Assembly: GCA_965223325.1 (NCBI GenBank)
Contig: CBDCWI010000002.1
Coordinates: 1,216,001 to 1,280,000 of the forward strand
Reading direction: 5' to 3'
DNA length: 64,000 bases
Source of the DNA: Candidatus Multivoradales bacterium
GTDB taxonomy: Bacteria; Acidobacteriota; Thermoanaerobaculia; Multivoradales; Multivoraceae
Under the pieces are notes generated by a model. It made no database searches. It was not told where the DNA came from and saw nothing but the letters and a program-made list of their open reading frames with translations. Position numbers and translations under genes: made by a program. This document shows positions 1,172-7,710 of this stretch, one piece after another (position 1 is the stretch's first letter; every line of letters starts with the position of its first letter).

Positions 1172-2074
1172 ATGCAACCCAAGAAGATTCTCCTGCCGAC
1201 CGACTTCACCGCCGAATCCGTCAAAGCTCTCGAGCGTGGCTTCGACCTCTGTCGGCAATTCGACGCCGAACCGCACTTCGTCCATGTCGTGTTGCAAGTG
1301 GACTACGCGCCCCTCGTCCCACCAGACGTCATGACCGGAAACCTCGGCGATCTCTACGAAGATGTCGCCAAGCGAGCAACAGACTCCTTGCAGGAGATCG
1401 CCGATCGGGTCGCCGTTGGGAGCAATGACTCGGTGGTGCGAGTTCTCACCGGACCCTCGGTCACCCGCACGCTGATCGACTACACCGAGGAACATGACAT
1501 CGACCTCATGGTCGTCGGCACCCACGGCCGCACCGGGGCGAAACGAGTGCTGCTCGGCAGCGAAGCTGAACGGCTGGTGCGCGTTGCCCCATGCCCGGTA
1601 CTCACGGTCGGTCCCGACGTCGACCCCAGGCCGGAGCGGCCGCTCCGCATCCTGGGCGCGCTCGATCTCGCGGATACCAGCCTCGAGGTCGCCCGCAGCG
1701 TACGCGAGCTCAGCGAGCTCTACTCTGCCGACGCTCACTTCATCCACATCGTCGCTCCGGTCATCTTGCCGGCCTACGTCGAGGGCTACACCCAGGTCTC
1801 GGTACCGGTCGACAACCTGCTGGCTCAGGCGAACGAGAAACTGCTCGAGGTCGTCGAAACGGCCGGCGTGGTCGATTCGACACTTCGTGCCTCCTTTGGA
1901 GACACGGCGATCGAAGTCGTCAAGTATGCGAAGGAAACCAACGTCGACCTGATCGTCGTCGCCACCCACGGGCGTAGCGGTTTGCCGCACCTTCTCCTCG
2001 GCTCGGTTGCGGATCGCATCGTCAGGACTGCTCACTGTCCCGTGATGACCGTACGACCCTCGACTTCGGATTGA
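1172..2074 (+). CDS. Universal stress protein, tandem USP domains
   Basis: 'KILLPTDF' start; two 'DL.VV.THGR.G....LGS.A.R.VR.A.CPV' motifs. Confidence 0.95.
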   Translation: MQPKKILLPTDFTAESVKALERGFDLCRQFDAEPHFVHVVLQVDYAPLVPPDVMTGNLGDLYEDVAKRATDSLQEIADRVAVGSNDSVVRVLTGPSVTRTLIDYTEEHDIDLMVVGTHGRTGAKRVLLGSEAERLVRVAPCPVLTVGPDVDPRPERPLRILGALDLADTSLEVARSVRELSELYSADAHFIHIVAPVILPAYVEGYTQVSVPVDNLLAQANEKLLEVVETAGVVDSTLRASFGDTAIEVVKYAKETNVDLIVVATHGRSGLPHLLLGSVADRIVRTAHCPVMTVRPSTSD

Positions 2075-2133
2075 ACTTGGCAGCCAGAGGAGCATCGACA
2101 GCCAACCGTTCGGGTCTTGATAGCGTCGCCCGA

Positions 2134-3651
2134 ATGAACTCCGCGCACACGGACGAGGGGCAGCTGTTTGGGGTCCTTCTCGAGGCGGCAGTCGACGGCA
2201 TCGTCGTGATCGATCGCCGTGGAACCTTGCGCCGTATGAATCACCAGGGGCTCGCCCTCTTCGGTTACGAAGCAGACGAGATCATCGGCAGGAACATCTC
2301 GCAGCTCATGCCTGAGCCCCATGCGAGCCAGCACGACGCCTACGTGAGCCGTTACCTCAAAACAGGTACGAAACGCATCATCGGCATCGGTCGTGAGGTC
2401 CTGGGCAAGCGCAAAGACGGCAGCACCTTCGTCATGGACCTGTCGGTCGGCGAAGGTGAAGTCGACGGGGAGCACTTCTTCATTGGTGTCATGCGCGACC
2501 TCACCGAGCGCAACGCCCTCATCCATGAGCTCCGCGAACGAGAGAGTGAAGTGCGGGGTCTGGTTGAAAACGCACTGGTCGCGACCGGGGCTCTCGACCC
2601 CGAGGGGCGCTTCCTGGGCTGGAACGACTCGTTCGCGCGCGCGCTCCGGACCTCAGATCTGCAAGGCAAGAAGCTCATCGGTTTCCTTCCGACGAATCAG
2701 CAGCGTGACTTCGAACAGGCACTTCGCCGCCTCTCGGAGAGCGGCGAGTCGGAACTGCTCCACGATCGGCGTTTCCAGGTCAATGACGAGGAAACAGACG
2801 AAACACGCGTCGGTGACATTTACCTCTCTCCGGTCCGCGACCTCGACGCCCCCGACGAGCCGATCCATCGGCTCGTAGTCCAGTTCGTCGATCGCACGAC
2901 AGAGGTGCAAGCCGAGCGTGCGGCGCTCGAGGCTCAGAACCGAATCGCCCACCTCAATCGCCTGGGTACGCTCGGTGAAATGGCAGCGGGGATCTCGCAC
3001 GAGGTCAACCAACCCCTGGGCGCGATTTCGAACTATGCACAAGCGGCGCGCTTCATGCTGAGAGCACCCTCGACCGATCCGGAAGCATTGCTCGGCGTGC
3101 TCGAGAAAATCGCCGCCCAGGCAGAACGAGCCGGGAGCGTCATTCGGCGCATGCGCGCGCTGGCAGGCGACACCACTACGGCACGTGAGACCTGCGACCT
3201 CGCCGATTTGATCCATGAGGTCGTTGGGCTGTTCGGGAGCGACGCTCGTTTTGAACTTCCCCGCCTCGATGTCGACCTTGGATCAGACCTACCCGAAGTC
3301 CGAGTCGACCGCGTCCAGATTCAACAGGTGCTCTTGAACTTGCTGCGCAACGCCCTCGATGCCATGGCCGATGTGCCAGTCTACGACCGCCAGCTTCGGC
3401 TCGAGTGTCAGGGTGAACCGAGCCACGTCACCATCAGCGTCGTAGACCGTGGTCACGGCATCATCCCGGAGATCGCCGATCAGCTGACCGACCCGTTCTT
3501 CTCGACCAAAGAGCACGGAATGGGTATGGGCCTGGCTATCTGTGCTTCGATCGTTTCCTCTCACGCCGGCAAGCTCTGGCACTCCGCCAACGAGCCGGCC
3601 CCCGGTGCCACCTTCCATGTTCAACTTCCACTACCGGTTACCTCATCATGA
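2134..3651 (+). CDS. fixL: Heme-PAS oxygen-sensor histidine kinase, FixL-like, soluble, with two PAS domains
   Basis: 'LMPEPHASQHDAYVSRY...RIIGIGREV.G.RKDG' FixL heme PAS; HEVNQPL H-box; N/G1/F/G2 boxes. Confidence 0.85.
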   Translation: MNSAHTDEGQLFGVLLEAAVDGIVVIDRRGTLRRMNHQGLALFGYEADEIIGRNISQLMPEPHASQHDAYVSRYLKTGTKRIIGIGREVLGKRKDGSTFVMDLSVGEGEVDGEHFFIGVMRDLTERNALIHELRERESEVRGLVENALVATGALDPEGRFLGWNDSFARALRTSDLQGKKLIGFLPTNQQRDFEQALRRLSESGESELLHDRRFQVNDEETDETRVGDIYLSPVRDLDAPDEPIHRLVVQFVDRTTEVQAERAALEAQNRIAHLNRLGTLGEMAAGISHEVNQPLGAISNYAQAARFMLRAPSTDPEALLGVLEKIAAQAERAGSVIRRMRALAGDTTTARETCDLADLIHEVVGLFGSDARFELPRLDVDLGSDLPEVRVDRVQIQQVLLNLLRNALDAMADVPVYDRQLRLECQGEPSHVTISVVDRGHGIIPEIADQLTDPFFSTKEHGMGMGLAICASIVSSHAGKLWHSANEPAPGATFHVQLPLPVTSS

Positions 3652-4262
3652 CTAGTACTCCTCTACAGACAGTCTTCATCGTCGACGATGACGAGGCCTT
3701 TGCCGACTCGGTCTCGGTTCTGTGCCAATCCGTTGGCATCGCCTCGCAGACTTTCGAGTCTGCCGAAGAGTTTCTCGAGGAATTCGTACCCTCCTGGAAC
3801 GGTTGTCTGGTGCTCGACGTGCGCATGCCCAGGAAAAGCGGGCTAGATCTCTACAAGGAGCTCACCGAACTCGGCAACACCATGCCGGTGATCTTCATCA
3901 CCGGTCACGGGGACATCGGGATGGCGGTCAGCGCGATGAAAGACGGGGCCTTCGACTTTTTGACCAAGCCGTTCTCACATCAGGAACTTCTCGATCGAAT
4001 CCACACCGCGCTCGCCGGCGCGAGCAGAGAGCGAGCTGCCGGTGCCGAGCGGGCCGAGCTCTCTACCCGTCACCAGGGGCTGACGCCGCGCGAAAGCGAG
4101 GTCTTCGACCTGGTGGTCGCCGGCAACGCCAACAAGGTCATCGCCAGCCGTCTCGGAATCAGCCAGCGGACCGTCGAGCTTCACCGGGCCCAGGTGATGG
4201 CGAAGATGAAGGCCGATTCCCTGGCCGACCTGGTGCGCATGGCGGTCGCGATCGGTCAATAG
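3648..4262 (+). CDS. fixJ: FixJ-like response regulator (REC + LuxR HTH)
   Basis: VDDD, LDVRMP, FITGHGD, KPF and 'LTPRE..V...NKVIA..LGIS.RTVE.HR'; ATGA overlap with fixL. Confidence 0.9.
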   Translation: MTSTPLQTVFIVDDDEAFADSVSVLCQSVGIASQTFESAEEFLEEFVPSWNGCLVLDVRMPRKSGLDLYKELTELGNTMPVIFITGHGDIGMAVSAMKDGAFDFLTKPFSHQELLDRIHTALAGASRERAAGAERAELSTRHQGLTPRESEVFDLVVAGNANKVIASRLGISQRTVELHRAQVMAKMKADSLADLVRMAVAIGQ

Positions 4263-4381
4263 GCGACCGCGGCCAAACGCCGGCCGTGGCGAACCCTAGA
4301 GCCGCTTCGTGTTCGGGCGCCCTACCCTCTTCATGCCCTCGGCGCGCTCTGCGAGACCCCTAGGGCCCGCCAGCACCGCTC

Positions 4382-4966
4382 TCAGTGCGGGTGGTGGATC
4401 CCCTCCGAAGGCATCTCGGGCTTGTACTCCTGATGACAAGCCTCGCAGGCCGCAATGATGCTGTCGCCGGCCCGAAGGACGCGCTCGAGGTCGCGAGCCT
4501 GGGCCCCGGCATAACCTTCCATTGCGGCATCGGTCATGAGACGGGCCTGTTGCTGCCACGGCAGCTGCCGCACCCAGCCGTCATCGGAAGGTCCGGTCCC
4601 GCCGGCGGTGATCGCCGTGCCCGAGATCGCCAGCTGAACGGCGTGATGTTCGACTTCCTGCCAGTCTTTCTCGGTCACTGGAGCACCGCCTTCGCGACCG
4701 AGGTCCCACAGCTCGTGTGCTGAGTGGTCGACCAGCGCCACCATGACCGCGTTGAGACTGAGGGCTGGCTCGACGGCCGGCTCGAGACACCCGAGCTCAC
4801 ACTCCTCGACCGCACTCTTGACAGCAGTTTCGATCTCGTCAGCGGCTGCCGCAGACGTGGTTGCCGCAGACCCGTTGCCTTCCTGCGGCGCACAGGCTGC
4901 AAACGTCAGCAAGCCGAATGCGATCGAGAGACCGGTGAGAGCGAGAAGACCTGAGTTGCGTTCCAT
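4382..4966 (-). CDS. Cytochrome c'-like (class II) lipoprotein
   Basis: Lipobox FAAC, helical body, C-terminal CEACH heme motif; SD AGGAGG upstream. Confidence 0.65.
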   Translation of the reverse strand: MERNSGLLALTGLSIAFGLLTFAACAPQEGNGSAATTSAAAADEIETAVKSAVEECELGCLEPAVEPALSLNAVMVALVDHSAHELWDLGREGGAPVTEKDWQEVEHHAVQLAISGTAITAGGTGPSDDGWVRQLPWQQQARLMTDAAMEGYAGAQARDLERVLRAGDSIIAACEACHQEYKPEMPSEGIHHPH

Positions 4967-5073
4967 CTTCCTCAACCTCCTTCAAGCGGCCCATCGTGGC
5001 CCTCTTAGAGGGCCATGGGCAAGACGTCTGTTTCTTTCGGTCACCATCGCAGACGGGTGACACCTCGCTCCAG

Positions 5074-5109
5074 TAGGGCTCTCCCGTAACCACCTAGGGG
5101 TTTCCCGAA
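5074..5109. promoter_or_regulatory. Paired candidate FixJ/LuxR-type operator sites
   Basis: TAGGGCTCTCCCGTA (5074-5088) and TAGGGGTTTCCCGAA (5095-5109), 21 bp apart, between divergent heme-protein genes. Confidence 0.45.
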
Positions 5110-5206
5110 CGCACAGCGGTCTCTTGCCTGGATCACGACCTTGGATAAGGTCGATCCAACCGTTCCCCCTTTCGTTTTCACCCACAACCCATGGAGAGCG
5201 CAGCTC

Positions 5207-5590
5207 ATGGCCGACCCCCAGGAATCCGTCTACGACCGAATCGGCGGCAGCGAGGTGATCGATGAACTCGTCACGCAGTTTTACGAAAGGGTGTTTGCTG
5301 ACCCCGAGCTGGCGACGTTCTTCCAGGACACTGCCCGGGAGAAGCTGATCAAGATGCAGCGCGAGTTCTTCGCCGCCGCACTCGGCGGACCGATCAAGTA
5401 CTCCGGTTTGTCACTGGCCCACGCGCACCATGGCCGCGGCATCCGCCGCCGACACTTCCAGCGCTACGTCGGCCACCTGGTCGATACCCTGGAGGGAATG
5501 AACGTTGGCGACGATGAGATGCGCGACGTCATCGAAAGGGTCGACACCTACGTTACGGAAATCACCGGCTCGATGGGCGATGCCGGATAG
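5207..5590 (+). CDS. glbN: Group I truncated haemoglobin (2/2 globin)
   Basis: 'SVYDRIGG', 'FYERV..DP.L..FF', 'Q..F...LGGP..Y.G..L..AH' globin pattern. Confidence 0.9.
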   Translation: MADPQESVYDRIGGSEVIDELVTQFYERVFADPELATFFQDTAREKLIKMQREFFAAALGGPIKYSGLSLAHAHHGRGIRRRHFQRYVGHLVDTLEGMNVGDDEMRDVIERVDTYVTEITGSMGDAG

Positions 5591-5615
5591 GCGGCAGGCG
5601 CGAGGAAGGAGCGAG

Positions 5616-5652
5616 AAAAAAATAGACCGACCCTTGTTCCGAGAGTCGGCCT
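5616..5652 (-). terminator. Intrinsic terminator on the minus strand
   Basis: AGGCCGACUCU/AGGGUCGGUCU 11-bp stem with G-U pairs, followed by A and U7. Confidence 0.75.
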
Positions 5653-5787
5653 TTCATAAGGAGAGTCTGCTTGTCCGGGCGGATGAGAACGGCGGAACGC
5701 ACAGGAACTGCCATCAGGGGAATGGGCACCTCGGGGACGATGGTTAAGTGCCAATACGCTCCACCGTTCTCACCCACCGCCAGACAC
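5616..5787 (-). ncRNA. Candidate sigma54-dependent structured small RNA (~172 nt), family unknown
   Basis: Long stem 5754-5786/5672-5702 whose plus-strand A-C mismatches become G-U pairs on the minus strand; bounded by a sigma54 promoter and a terminator; no credible ORF. Confidence 0.65.
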
Positions 5788-5797
5788 CCCTCCCTAG

Positions 5798-5813
5798 AGC
5801 AACCCCCGTGCCA
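5798..5813 (-). promoter_or_regulatory. Sigma54 (-24/-12) promoter
   Basis: Minus strand TGGCACG-GGGG-TTGCT, an exact match to TGGCACG-N4-TTGCW. Confidence 0.8.
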
Positions 5814-6063
5814 GCCCGCTCCAGGCTGCAGGAAAAGGCCTCCAACCCTGTATCTTCCGCCGGTTCAACCCTTTAGAGACGGGCCTCTGGGTCGGCTCGA
5901 GGCCTCCTGGCTCCCCCTGCTTCGCCGGCGGTGCTCCAGATCGAAGCACGCCAACAAGCTGGGCACAGACCGCTCAGTTCCGGTCCGGCGCAACCGATAC
6001 ACCTGAGCTACAATACATTTAATAGTCTGCATATTTGTACTATTTCTCTCAAGGAGGGTGCCT

Positions 6064-7710
6064 GTGTCACTCGACCGGTTCTTGTTCGCCAGCGGCCTGC
6101 TCTGGCTCGTCGCCATCTTCTTTGCCCTTGCGGCCAGGGGCCAGGGCTGGGACCAAACGATCTGGGTCCTCCAGCAACACCCCAGCGCTTCCGACGCCAA
6201 CCCGGGCAGTCAAAGCCTGCCACTCGAGACCATCCAGGAAGCCGTCGACCGGGCTCTCGTCAACAAGCGCGCCGAGCGCTCGACCCGCGTCGTCATTGGA
6301 GCGGGTCTCTACCGCGAGTCCGTTCTCTTCGACCGCTACACCAACCACCCCAGCAATCAACCGGGCAACTCGACGGCGATGCTGGTCGAGCGCGACCCCG
6401 ACATAGAGCCCGGATCGGTCGTTATCTCGGGAGCCGACCTGTGGACAGACTGGAGCGCGGCCGGTGAAGGCCGGTTCACACACGCCTGGCCTCACGATTG
6501 GGGCGAGGCAGCCAGCGACCCGACGGGGGTTCCGCCGCTCTCTCAGCGCCGTGAGATGGTCATTGTCGACGGCCAGATGTTGCGCCAGGTAGCCGCACCC
6601 GAGGAGCTCGGGCCCGGCACCTTCTTCGTCGATGAGGCGGCAGATCTCCTCACCCTCGAGACCAGCGACGGTCAACTGGGAAACGTCGAGGTCGCGGTCC
6701 GCGAGCGACTCTGGTGGCTGGAGTTCGAGAGCAACATCACGATACGCGGACTGTCTTTCGAGCACGCCTCGACGCCGTGGCTAAACGGTTACGGTGCGGT
6801 CCGCACGAGCGGCGGTCAAAACGTCACCTTCGAAGACCTGGTCATCCGCTTCGTCAATGGCAACGGGATCTATCTAGAAGGCGAAGACCTGACCCTCAGG
6901 CGGGCGGACCTTTCGGACGTGGGCTACAACGCCTGGGCGACCTTCCACGCCAAGAACGTGCTCATCGAAGACATCGTCGCCAACCGCAACAACTGGCGCG
7001 GCAAGCTCACGGGCTGGGCCAGCTGGTCGGTCGGCAACAAGCTGTTCGGTATCCATGGGCTCACGCTCCGCCGTTACAGCGCCCACGACAACTTCGGTCG
7101 CGGTCTCTGGCTTGACTACGACCTCCAGGACGTCCTCATCGAAGACATCGAACTAGAGGGCAACAGCCGCGATGGCATCTTCATCGAGGCCAGTCCGGGC
7201 CCCATCGTCATCCGCCGCGCCCGTATCTGTGGCAATGGCGAGTACGGCATCCTGACGGCCAACTCGATGGACACGACCCTCGATCGCGTCACCGTATGTG
7301 ATAACCAGCAGGCGGCCCTCATGGTCTCGGGAGAAGACGACGGACGCACGATCACCGACTGGGAGACCGGCACGCAGCACACCCTCTTCCTCGACAACTG
7401 GACCATCCTCGCCTCGTGCTTTGCCGGCAAAGAGGACTTCCTGTTCGCGACCACCCTCGACAACAGCTGGTCGACCTGGCTCGCCAACCTGAACTCCGGC
7501 TGGAACGACTGGCGGCACGATCAAACCGCGCTCGCCTTCCGCCTCCAACATGGCGAGGTGGTCGACTTCGAGGGCTTTCGAAGCCAAACCGGCGAAGGCT
7601 CTCGGTCTCTCTTCGCCATGACCGACGCCTCAGCCTGCCGACCCTTCCTGTTCGTCGACGACTTCGAGAGTGGCGCGCTGGGCCGCTGGTGGTTGGCGCG
7701 TGGCAGTTGA
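6064..7710 (+). CDS. Secreted right-handed parallel beta-helix protein with a C-terminal FxDDFESG motif
   Basis: SD AGGAGG 6 nt before GTG, signal peptide, repeated 'N.G.G(I/L)' beta-helix turns. Confidence 0.8.
   Translation: MSLDRFLFASGLLWLVAIFFALAARGQGWDQTIWVLQQHPSASDANPGSQSLPLETIQEAVDRALVNKRAERSTRVVIGAGLYRESVLFDRYTNHPSNQPGNSTAMLVERDPDIEPGSVVISGADLWTDWSAAGEGRFTHAWPHDWGEAASDPTGVPPLSQRREMVIVDGQMLRQVAAPEELGPGTFFVDEAADLLTLETSDGQLGNVEVAVRERLWWLEFESNITIRGLSFEHASTPWLNGYGAVRTSGGQNVTFEDLVIRFVNGNGIYLEGEDLTLRRADLSDVGYNAWATFHAKNVLIEDIVANRNNWRGKLTGWASWSVGNKLFGIHGLTLRRYSAHDNFGRGLWLDYDLQDVLIEDIELEGNSRDGIFIEASPGPIVIRRARICGNGEYGILTANSMDTTLDRVTVCDNQQAALMVSGEDDGRTITDWETGTQHTLFLDNWTILASCFAGKEDFLFATTLDNSWSTWLANLNSGWNDWRHDQTALAFRLQHGEVVDFEGFRSQTGEGSRSLFAMTDASACRPFLFVDDFESGALGRWWLARGS

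Follow-up and report, generated by a model that had tools for sequence, protein, structure and literature searches.

We found that an intergenic stretch of 172 nt on the minus strand, at 5787-5616, has the organization of a small RNA (sRNA) gene under sigma-54 control. Coordinates refer to the window, by which we mean the whole 64-kb stretch of DNA analyzed (G000:C2:1216001-1280000), part of an acidobacterial genome, G000, of 6.69 Mb in two contigs that is 98.2% complete. Our best explanation of the locus is a sigma-54-driven sRNA of ~172 nt that most likely acts through Hfq-assisted pairing of an unpaired linker with Shine-Dalgarno (SD) regions, and on the sequence evidence we put the probability of this explanation as a whole at roughly two in three. 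That the unit is a stand-alone sigma-54-dependent sRNA gene, as a first-pass annotation of the window had proposed, appears likely: the fold is strand-asymmetric, the module is conserved between unrelated flanks with its promoter boxes kept, and the genome carries rpoN, sigma-54 activators and hfq. From this anatomy, which is probably that of a trans-acting, Hfq-dependent sRNA, we infer transcription and its start site, dependence on Hfq, pairing at ribosome binding sites (RBSs), a signal and targets. The elements of the unit and the genes on either side of it are as follows.

5813-5798, minus strand: predicted sigma-54 promoter TGGCACGGGGGTTGCT, an exact match to TGGCAC-N5-TTGCW
5813-5808, minus strand: -24 box TGGCAC, followed by a 5-nt spacer
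5802-5798, minus strand: -12 box TTGCT, kept in the congener G001 and in the contig of sequencing run X8
5787, minus strand: putative transcription start, a G, 12 nt downstream of C5799 taken as -12
5786-5672, minus strand: long 5' hairpin of ~115 nt, in the minimum free energy (MFE) and centroid folds
5737-5717, minus strand: large apical loop closed by CCAUCG/UGAUGG, with the conserved core GAGGUGCCCA and C/U-rich runs on either side
5671-5653, minus strand: single-stranded linker of 19 nt in the folds, with CUCUCCUU at 5665-5658
5652-5616, minus strand: intrinsic terminator from the terminator scan, an 11-bp stem with a 7-nt loop (5652-5624), an A and U7 (5622-5616)
5141-5590, convergent to the RNA unit: truncated globin gene (Pfam), with its stop codon at 5590, 26 nt from the RNA unit
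6058/6064-7710, plus strand, divergent from the RNA unit: gene for a right-handed beta-helix protein (Pfam)

Sigma-54 recognizes a -24 GG/-12 GC element with the consensus TGGCAC-N5-TTGCW. The 64-kb window holds a single exact match, at 5813-5798, which upholds the promoter first annotated there; 100 shuffles of the window gave an expectation of 0.05, with at least one match in 5 of the 100. When C5799 is taken as -12, the usual sigma-54 geometry of +1 relative to the -12 GC leads to G5787, in agreement with the earlier estimate of about 5787, and we take G5787 as the putative +1. A start at G5787 is supported by conservation, which in both G001 and the X8 contig begins at 5786 and leaves -11 to +1 variable. 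No sigma-70-like promoter was found in 5000-6500. Transcription by sigma-54 would tie synthesis of the RNA to the activity of some enhancer-binding activator.

Since the strict motif occurs 13 times in G000 and 12 times in a reversed-genome control when position is ignored, its frequency alone is uninformative. Position separates the two sets: when genes were called with a crude method based on GC3, 11 of the 13 matches in G000 fell between genes, compared with 2 of the 12 in the control. Ten of these 11 have a same-strand ORF of 184 to >490 aa within 400 nt, with a GC3 of at least 0.70. The eleventh is the promoter of the candidate RNA, which alone precedes a hairpin and T7 and has no ORF longer than 71 aa. 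One of the ten, at G000:C2:3009000-3013400, is followed by a gene for glutamine synthetase (glnA; PF00120, 446 bits) and then by one for a GAF-domain activator, an arrangement showing that this acidobacterium has the classical sigma-54 control of nitrogen. The intergenic enrichment and the glnA promoter together validate the consensus in G000, and we conclude from the placement of its matches that the strict motif marks real sigma-54 promoters there. The gene for sigma-54 itself, rpoN, whose presence the first-pass annotation had named as a check, was found at C2:195514 (PF04552, 224.5 bits). The sigma-54 activator domain PF00158 gave 24 matches in G000, 20 of them above 120 bits; in this search none lay within 60 kb of the RNA locus, the nearest being ~60 kb away. 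We found no upstream activator site common to G000 and G001 at comparable positions.

Other sigma-54 promoters of G000 provided observations of their own. The promoter at G000:C2:2317672-2317687 (minus), which precedes a gene for a DsbA-like thioredoxin, has a core one base off that of the RNA promoter. A 12-mer at -144 of the RNA promoter recurs with one mismatch, in the opposite orientation, at -182 of the promoter of the DsbA-like gene; the resemblance is weak, and the 12-mer could be a shared enhancer. The promoters at G000:C1:484700-484715 and C1:501583-501598, 17 kb apart, have near-identical upstream regions of 260 nt and a long ORF after each, as if a unit under sigma-54 control had recently been duplicated.

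Folded from G5787, the MFE structure of the RNA opens with a 7-bp hairpin base (5786-5780 with 5678-5672) and a 2-nt bulge, above which 24 continuous pairs and two more lead into an irregular apex. This amounts to about 31-33 bp and matches the stem of ~30 bp that had been proposed for 5786-5754 with 5672-5702. The whole MFE structure contains 56 pairs, of which 10 are G-U. On the minus strand the fold reaches -87.7 kcal/mol (z -5.44), and 0 of 200 shuffles were as good, whereas the same stretch of the plus strand reaches -63.1 kcal/mol (z -1.40), with 17 of 200 shuffles as good; the plus strand has A-C mismatches in the hairpin and merely 2-3 U after it. This difference in z bears out the argument that A-C mismatches of the plus strand become G-U pairs on the minus strand only. 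Two UCCCC motifs had been described at the apex, and both are present in G000, at ~5737-5733 and ~5721-5717, but of the two G001 retains just the second; its first C-run reads UUCCU instead of UCCCC. A TGGCAC in the hairpin at ~5753-5748 was considered as a mimic of the sigma-54 promoter and rejected, as the motif is unconserved in G001.

The anti-SD motif reported in the linker, CUCUCCUU, was verified at 5665-5658 and is predicted to be unpaired with a probability of 0.91 in G000 and 0.93 in G001; over the conserved 18-nt seed the corresponding values are 0.82 and 0.83. Downstream of the linker, the terminator scan of 5000-6500 returned one terminator-like site, at 5652-5616 (shuffle mean 1.2). 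With its 11-bp stem and U7 it closes a unit of 172 nt, the length of ~172 nt first given. As the sole terminator hairpin between two convergent units, the globin stop codon lying at 5590, this site would also suit a cis-linked element, either an antisense or convergent partner or a shared terminator of the globin gene in G000, and in G001 a leader of the metallo-beta-lactamase-fold (MBL-fold) hydrolase gene, which is there the next same-strand gene and starts ~175 nt past the U-tract. We consider a cis-acting role very unlikely. The plus-strand hairpin that would have to serve the globin gene carries the A-C mismatches and is followed by only 2-3 U, the crude gene calls place no same-strand gene within several kb after the RNA unit in G000, and the RNA module is conserved between species whose neighboring genes are unrelated.

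The comparison between species rests on G001, the only other species of the genus, in which BLAST matched the RNA unit at 81% identity (E 2.6e-33). Homology between G000 and G001 is limited to the stretch from promoter to terminator. In G001 an arylesterase-like gene lies upstream and the MBL-fold hydrolase gene downstream, both unrelated to the globin and beta-helix genes of G000. The G001 promoter, cGGCACG-ctgc-TTGCT, keeps the GG and GC boxes at the same spacing, and differs in the spacer sequence and upstream flank. The first 11 nt of the predicted transcript are identical in the two species, as are all positions of a 23-nt block covering the linker (5678-5656, 23/23). Cut at the U-tract, the G001 RNA adopts the same architecture at -86.1 kcal/mol.

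When these two sequences are aligned, each of the 41 defined pairs (41/41) is intact in either species; 4 of the changes between them are compensatory and 6 are one-sided. The long stem accounts for 32 of these pairs (32/32 held), 1 compensatory change and 4 one-sided changes, every one of the latter (4/4) being a switch between G-C and G-U. Such switches keep pairing solely in the minus-strand RNA and would thus be neutral only for an RNA of that strand. The terminator stem of G001 differs in sequence and still pairs: among 9 counted pairs, 3 show compensatory changes and 2 show one-sided ones, and the U7 run is retained. One stem position, G-C in G000 and A-C in G001, was left out of the defined structure. 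A homologue that keeps the promoter boxes and carries compensatory changes, which the first-pass annotation had set as a test, is thus found in G001 with its 4 compensatory pairs, but the covariation is statistically weak: in a control on the two sequences, 31 of 500 shuffles reached the observed score, and the comparison consists of two full sequences and one partial.

These data also bear on whether there is a gene here at all. Chance is expected to give about 12 strict motifs in a genome and one other full copy of the unit is known, so a chance sigma-54-like motif could have come to lie beside a chance or relic palindrome and terminator, the whole being conserved through close kinship. Such chance motifs mostly fall within genes (10/12), whereas the RNA promoter is intergenic and correctly spaced. 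Also against this reading, conservation ends at both limits of the module, where unrelated flanks begin, the substitutions keep RNA pairing on one strand only, and compensatory changes have rebuilt the terminator stem. No second copy of the unit exists genome-wide in G000, and as a single-copy element it is no dispersed repeat or relic of a mobile element. We regard a chance assembly as highly improbable. A small protein is almost certainly not the explanation either. Two minus-strand ORFs exist, at 5562-5777 (71 aa) and 5548-5754 (68 aa), but both cross the terminator, neither has a sensibly placed SD and start, and their GC3 values of 0.64 and 0.51 fall below the 0.70-0.84 of real genes here; in G001, indels and stop codons break all three reading frames.

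Further variation came from contigs of four sequencing runs, which we aligned to the RNA stretch. Three of the four runs yielded 151-nt pieces identical to the window. The fourth, X8, yielded one 173-nt contig at a depth of 4.2, which matches 5633-5786 (154 nt) with 1 change, located at a U-U mismatch within the stem. The contig remains colinear beyond this body: of the 11 positions that separate it from the -12 box (-11 to +1), 6 differ, and the last 8 nt covered, 5798-5805 including the TTGCT box, are again identical to the window. If the X8 contig is correct, selection would maintain both the -12 box and the RNA body, the latter from its first nucleotides, and would leave the sequence between them free to vary, the pattern predicted for a sigma-54 promoter with +1 near 5787.

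We then asked how far the RNA extends beyond these two species. A BLAST search of 61 related genomes with the 231-nt unit gave real matches in G000 and G001 alone, the matches in G029 and G055 being mere fragments of 23-30 nt. With up to 3 mismatches allowed, the 23-nt linker had matches in 2 of the 300 genomes searched from the order, and these two belong to the genus. A covariance model (R1) run on 57 genomes of the family likewise had real matches in G000 and G001 alone; of six more matches at E <=1, the four longest (E 0.024-0.86) resemble coding sequence and the other two span 27 and 49 nt. The exact 18-mer occurs at 22 loci in metagenome contigs, 0 of them homologous, and at 16 loci in 185,579 species genomes; four of these were read, of which G001 alone is homologous, and record titles (Ruminococcus and other gut taxa) served to judge the remaining 12. 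A composite pattern of the promoter, 115-145 nt and CTCTCCTT matched 12 of 300 genomes of the order, compared with 6 control matches, and the 10 matches outside the genus were without hairpin and terminator. No plasmid or phage match to the RNA unit was found.

Known RNA families gave no match either. A scan of the whole window with 4227 Rfam models, among them those for GlmY/GlmZ, 6S and Acido-1, produced 0 matches at gathering thresholds, which agrees with the earlier failure to recognize the sequence as Qrr, CrcZ, Pxr or any other known sRNA. In a permissive scan (E <=10) of 5500-6100, two plant-miRNA models alone appeared, at 24-26 bits against thresholds of 137-168, and these sub-threshold matches simply reflect a long hairpin. 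The searches point to a new RNA family within a known kind of regulator, found in one genus (two species genomes and read traces).

In the model that we favor, sigma-54 RNA polymerase would transcribe the RNA from the minus strand and the intrinsic terminator would end the transcript. The very stable 5' hairpin, which begins at nucleotide 2, would probably shield the 5' end and present the conserved C-rich loop. The invariant unpaired pyrimidine-rich linker, AAGCAGACUCUCCUUAU, would be the pairing seed, to which the conserved flank AAGCAGA would add specificity. The terminator hairpin with its U7 tail would be of the type bound by Hfq. The RNA would most likely act through Hfq-assisted pairing of the linker, and possibly of the C-rich loop, with the purine-rich SD regions of mRNAs made elsewhere in the genome, whose translation would thereby be blocked. 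The traits of Hfq-class sRNAs are present, namely a terminator with U7, an unpaired conserved seed and hfq in the genome (62.1 bits). The linker shares CUCCUU with the 3' end of G000's own 16S rRNA (...CACCUCCUUUCU), and the seed would therefore pair with AAGGAG-type SD sequences.

Pairing energies were examined at start regions and across the genome. Against 1,500 sampled start regions the 18-nt seed had a mean energy of -10.6 kcal/mol, compared with -8.6 for intragenic windows. Twenty shuffled seeds averaged -9.6 +/- 0.8 kcal/mol at the start regions, 2 of the 20 being as good as the real seed (z ~ -1.3). We also used RNAduplex to scan the 25-nt linker against 11,215 SD-plus-start sites in G000, for which the mean was -11.9 kcal/mol (sd 2.9). 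The first-pass annotation had suggested the RBS of the divergent beta-helix gene as a partner for the linker. Reading the sequence confirmed AAGGAGGG before this gene, at 6051-6058 of the plus strand, but the gene found no support as a target: it ranked 435 of 11,215 at -17.6 kcal/mol, and it was not found in G001, which keeps the RNA. The best site, at -25.9 kcal/mol, precedes another beta-helix protein gene, at G000:C2:1333966 (minus), which encodes a distant paralogue of the divergent neighbor (25% identity, E 7e-13; 5 such paralogues in the genome). Part of this pairing uses linker nucleotides that are unconserved in G001. Neither of these two beta-helix genes was found in G001 with these queries, and we therefore treat the match as an intriguing coincidence and not as a finding. 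Elsewhere in G000 or G001, sites complementary at 15 or more of the 18 seed positions did not rise above control level, and counts of contiguous complementary sites of 10-12 nt were unremarkable against a rough hand-worked expectation. As the searches returned no convincing target and no activator site, RBS pairing is something that we infer. Given a real gene, we judge such pairing by the linker to be plausible, if a little short of an even chance.

The same results leave room for a real sigma-54 RNA that does not pair with RBSs, and that would instead bind or decoy a protein, serve as an RNase III substrate releasing a shorter RNA, or regulate transcription. A near-perfect duplex of ~31 bp is unusual among Hfq-type sRNAs, and the conserved apical core is superfluous to a pairing model; the seed is without significant excess pairing at start regions, and no conserved target was found. 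Set against this, the strictest conserved block (23/23) is the unpaired linker, a typical signature of a pairing seed. Neither 6S nor any other Rfam family was matched, and CsrA, the usual partner of a sponge, was not found in this 98%-complete genome. We consider a non-pairing RNA unlikely. A CsrA sponge in particular was rejected, PF02599 not being found in G000; GGA motifs are present in the terminator loop in both species and, once more, just before the linker. We are more doubtful still of a further reading, in which the long near-perfect 5' duplex and its conserved loop, and not the linker, would be the active part, and the RNA would found an Acidobacteriota-specific class of sigma-54 riboregulators. 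The duplex might then act as a double-stranded RNA signal, as a precursor processed by RNase III or as a decoy; in the last case the SD-like GAGGUG in the loop and the anti-SD-like CUCUCCUU would act on ribosomes or an RNA-binding protein, without specific mRNA targets.

The pairing model has its closest counterparts among sRNAs already known to depend on sigma-54. Qrr1-5 of Vibrio are sigma-54/LuxO-dependent and Hfq-dependent sRNAs of ~100 nt with several short hairpins. The candidate RNA is like them in being a stand-alone intergenic sRNA gene with a -24/-12 promoter, a U-tailed terminator and an invariant unpaired seed, in a genome that has hfq. It differs in having no similarity to them in sequence or structure and no Rfam match, and in being one ~115-nt hairpin encoded by a single copy without siblings. 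GlmY/GlmZ of enterobacteria and CrcZ/CrcY of Pseudomonas are likewise sRNA genes under sigma-54 and a dedicated activator; GlmY (RapZ) and CrcZ/CrcY (Hfq/Crc) are protein decoys, and GlmZ pairs with glmS mRNA. These RNAs have Rfam families of their own, none of which was matched, and the A-rich Hfq/Crc motifs are absent from the G000 RNA.

Myxococcus Pxr is a sigma-54-dependent developmental sRNA, lineage-restricted and from a soil bacterium. The candidate resembles it in having a sigma-54 promoter on a lineage-restricted sRNA, but has no Rfam match, a different architecture and a host of another phylum. Anti-SD-type sRNA families carry repeated CCUCCUCCC or UCCC loop motifs. RsaE/RoxS (with C-rich motifs), the alpha-proteobacterial 'cuckoo'/NfeR1 RNAs and CJnc230 of Campylobacter have unpaired pyrimidine-rich motifs that could occlude an SD, as the candidate linker could; NfeR1 is reported to be tied to the NtrBC circuit and CJnc230 to RpoN, on which it depends. 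The G000 RNA shows no homology to these families and has the CUCUCCUU linker and one conserved C-run in its loop, with no repeated loop motifs. By analogy, the candidate would resemble Qrr, GlmY/GlmZ, CrcZ, Pxr, NfeR1 and CJnc230 in function, and its single long hairpin would be unlike all of them.

Acidobacteriota are among the most abundant soil bacteria, and to our knowledge almost nothing is known of their RNA regulators. Our literature searches, whose coverage mostly excluded subscription journals, found no paper describing an acidobacterial sRNA. A table in a 2022 review counts 4 annotated sRNA families in Acidobacteriota and 345 in Proteobacteria (PMC9029176). A candidate sigma-54 sRNA would offer a concrete entry to post-transcriptional control in this phylum, as a known kind of regulator where very few have been described. 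It would also make a simple test case, since the predictions for its promoter boxes, start, seed and terminator have single-nucleotide precision, although the candidate is limited to one genus of uncultured bacteria, represented by two species genomes and read-level traces.

The surroundings of the RNA unit showed several further features. By Pfam, the window encodes a PAS histidine kinase at 2071-3651, a FixJ/LuxR-type response regulator at 3648-4262 and, on the minus strand at 4382-4975, a weak match to a cytochrome c'-like protein; with the truncated globin gene (2071-5590 in all), this looks like an oxygen/NO-sensing cluster adjoining the RNA gene. On the other side, a perfect inverted repeat, AATAGT-N12-ACTATT, lies at 6021-6044 in AT-rich intergenic sequence separating the RNA promoter from the beta-helix gene; it is absent from G001 and might be bound by a regulator or be a site of the IHF type. 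In the divergent beta-helix gene, the longest ORF begins at a GTG, at 6058, that overlaps the end of its own SD sequence, and a second in-frame GTG, at 6064, is more likely to be its start.
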